Under the pieces are notes generated by a model. That model did no database searches and had not been told where the DNA came from. It worked only from the letters and a program-made list of their open reading frames with translations. 64,000 nt of DNA from a virus. Shown here piece by piece: positions 3,598-4,021 of the stretch; position 1 is the stretch's first letter; each line of letters opens with the position of its first letter. Made by a program: the position numbers and the translations under genes. The stretch lies in the IMG/VR virus record IMGVR_UViG_3300045988_141012. One strand, 5' to 3'.

Positions 3598-3625
3598 TTG
3601 ACTTTTCACTTAAATGTGATATAAT
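3598..3625 (+). promoter_or_regulatory. Sigma-A type promoter (TTGACT-16-TATAAT with TGn extension)
   Basis: TTGACT at 3598-3603 and TGATATAAT at 3617-3625. The 14-mer TGTGATATAATATT is identical to the one at 4431-4444. Confidence 0.7.
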
Positions 3626-3631
3626 ATTTAT

Positions 3632-3755
3632 AGAAATAAAAAATGTGGAAACCTAAGACGGTTGCCACAACTGATAATGTTTACACTTATTTGAGATTAT
3701 TTAATCTCAATTATAGTGAGCCAATCTGTTGCAGCAGACGGCTCACTTTTTCTTT
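3632..3755 (+). ncRNA. Candidate small RNA (~120 nt), antitoxin-like, convergent with the peptide gene on the minus strand
   Basis: It runs from the predicted TSS after the 3598 promoter to the intrinsic terminator at 3716-3755. No SD-preceded ORF is present. Internal hairpins are TGTGG...CCACA and GAGATTA-TTTAATCTC. It contains GACGGT-TG-CCACAAC (3657-3671), which is repeated at 3970-3989. Confidence 0.55.
3716..3755 (+). terminator. Intrinsic terminator shared by the convergent sRNA and peptide transcripts
   Basis: Stem GTGAGCC (3716-3722) / GGCTCAC (3740-3746) is followed by TTTTTCTTT. The stop codon of the minus-strand peptide ORF lies inside the stem. Confidence 0.7.
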
Positions 3756-3838
3756 ATAATCGCTATTATGTCTTTTATAATTTGATAAATCAAACTTAAA
3801 ATACCACAAATAGCAGCTATATTTACTAAAGTAATTAT
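3743..3838 (-). CDS. Candidate 30-31 aa hydrophobic, Lys-tailed peptide (type I toxin-like); non-AUG start
   Basis: GAAAGGAGG (3856-3848) is followed after 7 nt by ATA ATT ACT..., encoding (I)ITLVNIAAICGILSLIYQIIKDIIAIIKKK*. One TM helix is followed by a KKK tail. There is no ATG/GTG/TTG at the 5' end, so the start would be ATA or ATT, which lowers confidence. Confidence 0.35.
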   Translation of the reverse strand: MITLVNIAAICGILSLIYQIIKDIIAIIKKK

Positions 3839-3992
3839 GTATCAGCCTCCTTTCAAGAAAATTTCTCGTCAAGAGCTTATACACAGCCTCCATTCCGCTC
3901 AAGCGAGATGAAAGGCAACCGTCATAAACCGTCATACCGTCTACAAAGATGGAGAAAACTCAACTGTATGACGGTATGATTTCCACAACATT

Positions 3993-4021
3993 ATTATATC
4001 AAATTCAACATTAACTGTCAA
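3993..4021 (-). promoter_or_regulatory. Sigma-A type promoter (TTGACA-17-TGATATAAT), minus strand
   Basis: The reverse complement reads TTGACA (4021-4016), a 17 nt spacer, then TGA-TATAAT (4001-3993). It would drive a ~150 nt structured leader (9-bp inverted repeat CATACCGTC 3934-3942 / GACGGTATG 3970-3978) ahead of the AGGAGG of the small peptide. Confidence 0.7.

Follow-up and report, generated by a model that had tools for sequence, protein, structure and literature searches.

In the toxin–antitoxin (TA) systems of type I that Bacillus subtilis carries, the antitoxin RNA base-pairs at the toxin mRNA's 3′ end, and the resulting duplex is cut by RNase III (PMC6562991). Toxins of this type are defined as small, hydrophobic peptides that bear a charged tail, and their action is described as holin-like (PMC6563280); several of the B. 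subtilis systems are carried by the prophage elements SPbeta, P6 and skin (PMC6562991; PMC6563280). Extra type I controls include 5′–3′ interactions, sequestration of the Shine–Dalgarno (SD) sequence and GUG or other non-AUG starts (PMC8167048; PMC6562991); SR4 additionally strengthens the sequestration of the SD, and in yonT and fst the brake is a GUG start (PMC6562991). Here we describe a locus of comparable design at positions 3598–4021 of a 64,000-nucleotide (nt) stretch of viral DNA, IMG/VR record IMGVR_UViG_3300045988_141012 (hereafter the window, meaning the stretch at its full length). The locus is very probably a gene for a small membrane peptide opposed by a convergent antisense small RNA (sRNA), and we lean towards reading the two as a toxin and an antisense antitoxin that would act through a 3′ overlap. 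Because their toxins are tiny and diverse, type I TA systems easily escape detection; the present locus would add a family from large temperate human-gut phages.

Relation to described systems

With bsrG/SR4 and yonT/SR6 (SPbeta prophage) and txpA/RatA (skin element), the module shares a prophage-type element as carrier, convergent promoters, predicted pairing of the sRNA with the mRNA 3′ end, a sequestered SD and a small hydrophobic product with a charged C terminus; yonT, too, has a rare start codon, GUG. In these systems, SR6 has a length of 100 nt (PMC6562991; PMC5848175; PMC6563280). The module differs from these systems in its AUU start, where they have AUG or GUG, in its peptides of 30–31 amino acids (aa), which remain unmatched, in the occurrence of two peptides in one RNA scaffold, and in that the 3′ partner of a predicted mRNA closure lies within the antisense target. 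The par locus (fst/RNA II) of the Enterococcus faecalis plasmid pAD1 has in common with it convergent transcription, a hydrophobic peptide of about 30 aa, direct repeats, 5′ structure that limits translation and a non-AUG start (GUG in fst; PMC6562991). Unlike par, the module gives no Fst match, its terminator serves one strand, the overlap is likely to be about 119 nt instead of the terminator alone, and a repeat-mediated 5′ duplex is thermodynamically unfavourable. The Clostridioides difficile phiCD630-1 and phiCD630-2 modules (for example CD0956.2/RCd10, CD0904.1 and CD2907.2) likewise belong to temperate phages of a gut Firmicute and overlap convergently (PMC6563280); their toxin homologues, of 30–56 aa, are hydrophobic in the N-terminal part and lysine-rich in the tail, and a part in prophage stabilisation has been shown for them (PMC6563280). 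Our locus is set apart from these by its AUU start, by the lack of detectable similarity and by the absence of any visible association with a CRISPR array or riboswitch. The antisense RNAs of hok/Sok (plasmid R1) and of aapA1/IsoA1 (Helicobacter pylori) target the 5′ region of their mRNAs, and the message is activated by 3′ processing. These two systems share with the module a predicted 5′–3′ lock of the full-length toxin mRNA and an occluded SD (PMC8167048), whereas in the present locus it is the 3′ partner of the closure that would lie under the antisense RNA, and the sequences are unrelated. In architecture the module stands nearest the SPbeta-type 3′-overlap systems and outside the Fst/par family, to which a first-pass annotation, a model's reading of the letters alone, had likened it; the lack of an Fst match, the one-strand terminator and the weak repeat duplex all speak against that comparison.

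A conserved module between two facing promoters

Two promoters face each other 423 base pairs (bp) apart, and they are the top two sites of the region in a promoter scan. Both are close to consensus with an extended −10 TG (Table 1), in agreement with the first-pass annotation. Sites with at least 11 of 12 consensus positions plus TG number seven on the two strands of the window, against 0.43 expected under a first-order Markov model, and two of the seven flank the locus; two such promoters facing each other at this distance are not a chance arrangement. Comparison of copies points to conservation of both. The minus-strand promoter is identical in each aligned copy that covers it, and the sRNA promoter keeps its TTGAC(T/A) −35 box, its 16-nt spacing and its TG despite three different left flanks.

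In total, 50 copies of the module (window included) were assembled from IMG/VR, ENA/JGI and Logan contigs. Those in IMG/VR were found by degenerate and exact DNA patterns on contigs of 29–158 kb; a leader DNA pattern located the module in 22 contigs from metagenomes, two of which carry the label human gut metagenome; further copies were taken from contigs encoding protein P0001, and the P0003 locus was retrieved through a back-translated DNA pattern. Two IMG/VR loci, L006 and L011, were discarded as chance pattern matches. The exact inverted-repeat sequence of the window returned no matches when used as a pattern, because most copies carry CATGCCGT. Scaffold identity among all copies is 92–99%, and homology on the left stops at or within the sRNA promoter; the left flank (3340–3545) shows no support for a structured RNA (z = −0.21). 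Of the checks proposed at first pass, the covariance or homology search yielded these 50 phage and metagenome copies, with one compensatory pair, and found none in 185,579 species-representative genomes (GTDB; degenerate peptide-motif pattern), in which the three matches were chance ones, all inside unrelated open reading frames (ORFs). No Rfam family was found at the locus at gathering thresholds or at E ≤ 10, where chance-level matches to MicF, L20-leader and mir-46 alone appeared, the L20-leader match pointing to the minus-strand terminator. Among GenBank phages, megablast gave no match and distant blastn gave AT-rich promoter-like fragments only. The 50 conserved copies support the earlier view of the locus as a convergent sRNA and hydrophobic peptide module of type I TA design.

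A peptide gene with a predicted AUU start

The GGAGG of the SD is present in 50 of 50 copies, although for the 22 metagenome loci it was fixed by the search pattern itself, and after it come ATA (3838–3836) and then ATT (3835–3833) in the window. ATG, GTG and TTG are absent in frame after the SD from all 50 copies. Common to every copy are only the SD, 9–10 nt, ATT-ACT and 28–29 further sense codons. The start region reads CAT-A-ATT in 13 copies, the window among them, and CAT-ATT in the others; only where this 1-nt A is inserted, in the +A variants, does ATA fall in frame. Since ATT is the only initiator common to all 50 copies, the peptide is predicted to start there, and sequence comparison defines the coding unit as ATT plus 29–30 codons. 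The SD followed by a short hydrophobic frame with a non-AUG start was thus seen correctly at first pass; of the two initiators then considered, ATT is retained in every copy and ATA drops out.

The pattern of polymorphism fits the peptide frame. In the more frequent peptide allele (allele A), the eight polymorphic sites comprise five synonymous and three conservative changes (I to L or V) when read in this frame, and zero to two synonymous changes in each of the other five frames. Upstream, the same frame is open back to a leader ATG in 21 of the 50 copies, which is the 63-aa P0001 of gene callers, and is shut by a TGA or by +1 A in the other 29, in both peptide alleles; in 18 copies TTTGAAGGAGG places a TGA immediately ahead of the SD. 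The 74-aa ORF of the window (3711–3935) is the leader reading frame moved by the extra A (compare P0004). We therefore rejected both the 63-aa and the 74-aa ORF as artefacts, closed as the frame is in 29 copies, and with them the suggestion that the 74-aa ORF might be the translated product; gene callers misannotate the module as one or the other.

AUU is a working start codon in infC of B. subtilis, a Firmicute case (PMC1865079), and AUU initiation is discriminated by IF3 and responds to ppGpp, temperature and nutrient state (PMC5499595). Full-text search of one literature collection turned up no type I toxin reported to begin with AUU. The locus would offer a natural example of an AUU start kept in every copy (50/50), on a gene that is presumably harmful.

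Two peptide alleles in one RNA scaffold

Allele A encodes a 30-aa peptide with a KKK tail (grand average of hydropathy (GRAVY) 1.37, best 19-residue window 2.05, net charge +3). In 11 copies the peptide-coding DNA is swapped entirely, with leader, SD, ATT-ACT, stop-codon hairpin and 3′ untranslated region (UTR) unchanged, and the 31 codons of this allele B, ITSLFFGICTIIDT(I/V)VNVMALVLYI(F/C)DRNKK, encode a 31-aa peptide with an RNKK tail (GRAVY 1.04, best 19-residue window 2.21). The alleles are unrelated in sequence and alike in size, hydrophobicity and basic tail, and each is predicted to form a single transmembrane helix. Each is shorter than 60 aa and hydrophobic, contains a predicted transmembrane segment and ends in a charged C terminus, as type I TA peptides do.

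Searches of Pfam and NCBIfam (E ≤ 10) with both alleles returned no toxin model, Fst included; the sole hit, DUF5963, is below threshold at 15–16 bits against a cut-off of 23. PHROGs holds no family for either allele, and phmmer, run against 1.84 billion representative proteins, gave a single significant match, P0001, which is the module itself in fused-ORF form. No similarity to TxpA/BsrG, BsrH/BsrE or YonT was found in NCBIfam, Pfam or PHROGs, insofar as models of these are included there, and the 74-aa ORF product matches no family.

In two of the 50 copies, an insertion sequence (IS) of the IS200/IS605 type, 1,706 bp long, breaks the peptide ORF after codon 19 (...IYQI). The insertion site is identical in both (L005:1019–2724, and L012 on the reverse strand), the inserts are 92% identical to each other, and their flanks are nearly identical. 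The ORFs of the element, assigned by eye, encode a 136-aa Y1-transposase-like and a 403-aa TnpB-like protein. These interrupted ORFs are the one hint among the copies that the peptide might be toxic; similar insertions reportedly inactivate hok genes. In a separate allele-B copy (L029:1–392, reverse strand), the sequence turns into unrelated DNA in the loop of the stop-codon hairpin, after ...CTGCAACAGAT, through either another insertion or an assembly break.

A structured leader and a predicted 5′–3′ fold-back

The whole minus-strand mRNA has a fold z-score of −9.4. Its first leader helix, H1, pairs 3978–3970 with 3941–3933; the 9-bp inverted repeat that the first-pass annotation described is thus present, its left arm lying one base from the position then given. 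Across 19 distinct variants, 99.9% of cells in the predicted structure are paired, with one compensatory pair in H1 (C–G in nine, U·G in two, U–A in eight) and seven one-sided changes, all of which preserve wobble pairing, and RNAalifold retains all predicted elements. Together with the bases that follow it as far as the start codon, the SD is predicted to pair with the upstream GUGUAUAAGCUCUU in a 13+5-bp helix; the 13-bp helix that holds the SD is conserved in the 19 variants. Outside the ORF, variable columns make up 9 of 141 paired positions versus 48 of 128 unpaired ones (Fisher p = 2e-10). The leader ATG has no SD and lies within the H1 stem, with 1–2-nt indels just downstream. On the minus strand of the leader (3925–3978), three tandem (U)AUGACGGU elements stand opposite a single CAUACCGUCAUAC, which allows at least two H1 registers, that of the first-pass annotation and that chosen by RNAalifold; alternative registers could act as a co-transcriptional folding switch.

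Two further helices are predicted between the leader and the mRNA 3′ end (Table 1). The 5′-terminal 9-mer pairs in both the minimum-free-energy and the consensus fold, its pairs 3–8 are invariant in the 19 variants, and full pairing of the 9-mer has a chance p of about 0.012. The leader element GACGGUUGCC forms 10 perfect pairs with GGCAACCGUC (chance p of about 0.003); its own arm is invariant with variable columns close on either side, and its partner has two wobble-preserving changes. Both helices use arms of the 3′ terminator, at the cost of opening a hairpin of −12.1 kcal/mol, and restricting pairs to a 150-nt span gives a best fold that is 13 kcal/mol worse than the closed one.

These arms bear on the direct repeat that had suggested a par-like design. 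Both copies, GACGGT-N2-CCACAAC (3657–3671) and GACGGT-N7-CCACAAC (3970–3989), are exact, and the second CCACAAC would, as anticipated, be only partly transcribed, part of it lying upstream of the predicted transcription start site (TSS). A duplex of the two RNAs outside their overlap, which the repeats were proposed to allow, is energetically unfavourable. The sRNA–leader duplex formed through the repeats is worth −14.8 kcal/mol and must open both the sRNA 5′ hairpin (−11.2 kcal/mol) and H1 (−20.5 kcal/mol); the repeats lie about 135 nt upstream of the SD; and a free search for sRNA–leader duplexes scored −25.8 versus −23.1 ± 3.6 for shuffled sRNA. Because the pairing energies favour the intramolecular helices, we prefer a 5′–3′ fold-back to a trans contact, with the direct repeat as the probable DNA trace of the fold-back arm sequences.

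A predicted antisense RNA over the mRNA 3′ end

The candidate sRNA is complementary throughout to the predicted mRNA 3′ UTR plus the last four codons, with a predicted overlap of about 119 nt (3637–3755). The earlier statement that the plus-strand transcript has no credible ORF needs a qualification: a 38-aa ORF (3643–3759) does exist, and it begins at the one ATG of the sRNA, has no SD and contains the sites of indels in other copies.

The hairpin at 3716–3746 is stable on both strands (−18.3 kcal/mol on plus, −19.4 on minus), with an invariant stem and changes confined to the loop, and the TGA stop codon sits in its stem, as had been noted. Its role as a shared bidirectional terminator, which was also proposed, is contradicted by the minus strand, which continues past the hairpin as CUAUAAUUGAG; the U-tract is on the plus strand only. 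The minus strand has its U-tract after another hairpin alone, the one at 3669–3644, about 75 nt beyond, which the first-pass annotation had missed. Its stem (−12.1 kcal/mol) is followed by UUUUUUAUUU, the run of six to eight U residues is present in all complete copies, and its complement forms the sRNA 5′ hairpin. The toxin mRNA more likely ends at this 3669–3638 terminator, with a length of about 350 nt, and the sRNA would therefore be antisense to its last 119 nt or so. Between the two terminators, the loop of a middle hairpin and the linker downstream of it vary, giving three haplotypes. The conserved convergent promoter, the terminator and the structured 120-nt RNA are, in silico, those of a cis-encoded overlapping antisense RNA, and the 3′ pairing combined with a sequestered SD points to a 3′-overlap type I system, an assignment that hinges on the predicted mRNA 3′ end.

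Table 1. Predicted features of the module in the window (CDS, coding sequence)
Feature	Positions	Strand	Details
Toxin-mRNA promoter	3993–4021	−	TTGACA-17-TGATATAAT (TATAAT), extended −10 TG, 12/12; predicted TSS ~3986
sRNA promoter	3598–3625	+	TTGACT-16-TGATATAAT (TATAAT), extended −10 TG, 11/12; predicted TSS ~3632
Structured 5′ UTR, ~151 nt	3836–3986	−	H1, H2 (~3912–3889), SD-sequestering helix (3884–3837)
5′-terminal GUGGAAAUC	3978–3986	−	Partner GGUUUCCAC (3653–3645), 9/9 pairs, −12.5 kcal/mol
Leader element GACGGUUGCC	3914–3923	−	Partner GGCAACCGUC (3666–3657) near mRNA 3′ end, −20.5 kcal/mol
SD GAAAGGAGG	3846–3854	−	Paired with upstream anti-SD GCUCUU (3878–3870 region)
Peptide CDS	3743–3835	−	ATT start 3835–3833, 30 codons (I/M)TLVNIAAICGILSLIYQIIKDIIAIIKKK, TGA stop 3745–3743
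Toxin mRNA terminator, candidate	3638–3669	−	UGUGGCAACC-GUCUUA-GGUUUCCACA plus U6–8; stem 3669–3644, U-run 3643–3638
Candidate antitoxin sRNA	3632–3755	+	~120–125 nt, three stem-loops, z = −5.4 (3632–3758 folded)
Middle hairpin	3691–3710	Both RNAs	UUGAGAUU-loop-AAUCUCAA; stem conserved, one copy loses a pair
sRNA intrinsic terminator	3716–3755	+	Stem 3716–3746 GTGAGCC...GGCTCAC, T5 at 3747–3751, TTTTTCTTT
Hairpin plus T-run past toxin promoter	4035–4061	+	Terminator-like; stem has G·U pairs

Proposed mechanism and alternative explanations

In the mechanism that we favour, the strong sigma-A-type promoter at 4021–3993 would drive the minus-strand mRNA of about 350 nt, and the 151-nt leader would bury the SD and the start-adjacent bases in the 13+5-bp helix. 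Translation would be possible only from the AUU at 3835, giving the 30-residue transmembrane peptide with its KKK tail; the stop codon would be held in the stable hairpin, with the mRNA running on for about 105 nt to 3669–3638. The mRNA 5′ end and the leader element may pair with the terminator arms and close the mRNA on itself, like hok or aapA1. The sRNA of about 120 nt, ending at 3716–3746 plus U5, would cover both 3′ fold-back partners, and the sRNA–mRNA duplex would lead to RNase III cleavage, decay and possibly remodelling of the leader, by analogy with bsrG/SR4, yonT/SR6 and txpA/RatA. Repression of the gene would then be threefold, through the weak AUU start, through sequestration of the SD and through the antisense RNA. 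Since the phage is temperate, prophage retention, or the killing of cured or infected cells, is the likely role; should the product prove toxic, SPbeta-like gut phages would have in this module a candidate device for prophage retention or abortive infection.

New in this module are the peptide family, the invariant AUU start, the presence of two peptides in one scaffold and a predicted antisense target that is the fold-back 3′ partner. The two peptides in one RNA scaffold would amount to a natural experiment on module evolution and might supply portable RNA control parts. A bolder version of the mechanism, which we hold to be doubtful, treats the two promoters, leader, fold-back and antisense target as a fixed chassis for exchangeable, unrelated membrane-toxic peptides, the AUU as a sensor of initiation fidelity beyond its being a weak start, and the sRNA as a competitor for the terminator arms; the toxin would then fire only on changed initiation fidelity or host translational state, for example upon prophage loss or superinfection. 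We know of no type I mechanism in which an sRNA competes with the mRNA 5′ end for terminator arms.

Several points weigh against the toxin–antitoxin reading. The transcripts, translation from AUU and toxicity are all computational predictions; no known toxin family was matched, and toxicity is suggested by composition only; and initiation at AUU or AUA has a low efficiency, with perhaps very little peptide as the result. The 50 copies are close relatives of one another and the structure comes from these same sequences, the covariation amounts to one compensatory pair that probably reflects a single event, and the module was not found in any of the 185,579 species-representative genomes. A simple terminator scan called neither terminator. 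As to the fold-back, the arms of the terminator and sRNA hairpins would be conserved anyway, and the polymorphisms fail to discriminate local from long-range pairing, or one strand from the other.

The same RNAs might instead serve a small phage membrane effector, such as a lysis-timing, holin-modulating or superinfection-exclusion peptide, whose dose the antisense RNA and the weak start would govern. This is an unlikely explanation, though one that draws on the moron-like island in the tail block, which holds other accessory genes with their own promoters, on the lack of similarity to any proven toxin and on the holin-like action ascribed to type I toxins (PMC6563280); against it, three stacked layers of repression are typical for harmful products, an IS element breaks the ORF in two copies, and two unrelated peptides in one scaffold favour generic membrane damage over a specific partner. 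A par-like arrangement, in which the mRNA would end at the shared hairpin 3716–3746, the overlap would be confined to this terminator and the sRNA would repress translation by pairing with the mRNA 5′ end through the direct repeats, we regard as quite improbable. The exact repeat, a hairpin strong enough on both strands to allow some mRNA termination or pausing, and the resemblance of a 30-aa peptide with a non-AUG start to fst with its GUG (PMC6562991) are set against a minus strand that has no U-tract past the hairpin, a repeat duplex that costs two hairpins, a free sRNA–leader duplex search that does no better than shuffled sRNA, a CCACAAC that lies partly upstream of the predicted TSS and peptides outside the Fst family.

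Two further explanations fare much worse. That the whole arrangement consists of chance features of AT-rich intergenic DNA, or of remnants of a decayed element, is very improbable, even if the evidence is wholly computational and AT-rich DNA does yield weak promoter matches (24 found versus 9.3 expected at 9/12 or better). Strong promoter sites are observed at about 16 times the chance level, the block is conserved with sharp edges at both promoters while the flanks differ, variation spares the helices, the codon positions of the polymorphisms fit the peptide frame, and a second peptide allele has the same properties. Least of all would we credit the longer ORF from the leader ATG (63 aa, or 74 aa in the frameshifted window, which would make the window copy a pseudogene) as the product. 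Its 63-aa version has an ATG start, is annotated by gene callers and is open in 21 of the 50 copies, whereas 29 copies of both alleles close it, 1–2-nt indels fall in its 5′ part (columns 60–69 of A2), its ATG is buried in the H1 stem with no SD, the strong SD standing instead 9–10 nt before ATT, and the 74-aa version matches no family. A toxin repressed through a 3′ overlap stays the reading towards which we lean.

Phage context

The module occupies a cassette of about 430 bases in a gap of about 1 kb between a tape-measure gene (32–3139, PF10145) and a DUF6514 gene (4164–4373), and it lies in this same gap in every copy whose flanking genes were examined. Because the upstream genes of the copies match the YomN (weakly) and YomU tail-tube families, the phages can be placed in an SPbeta-like group, and because the window encodes a tyrosine integrase (34906–36057, minus strand), the phage is temperate. 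The terminator-like hairpin past the toxin promoter (4035–4061) changes among copies in ways that, from our reading of the alignments, preserve pairing on the plus strand only, and it probably stops antisense or late-operon read-through transcription.

Beyond it, a moron-like island (4164–6965) separates the tape-measure gene from the gene for a 2107-aa tail protein. The island holds the DUF6514 gene, a DUF3800 gene (4443–5216), the gene for a 291-aa protein and an opposite-strand gene for a zinc-ribbon protein (6501–6965). The 291-aa protein has a hydrophobic N-terminal segment, and two near-consensus promoters (5221 and 5462) lie ahead of its gene. Within the tail gene block, a TnpB/IS605 OrfB gene (13930–15054, plus strand) encodes OrfB_IS605, Cas12f1-like TNB and HTH_OrfB domains.

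Other features of the window lie farther away. A full-length drum RNA (RF02958) at 34433–34541 on the plus strand scores 88.8 bits against a gathering score of 43 and has a hairpin and a T-run after it; at 34830, a minus-strand promoter close to consensus (TGGACA-17-TATAAT with TG) is directed at it. Repeated TTGATACCAA(TT) motifs at 34620–34900, adjoining the tyrosine integrase gene, are probably attP arm-type sites. A GIY-YIG/NUMOD3 homing-endonuclease gene (38202–39014, minus strand) neighbours the gene for the anaerobic ribonucleotide reductase NrdD (39301–41433, minus strand), and a gene for an NAD-dependent DNA ligase is found at 43680–45671.

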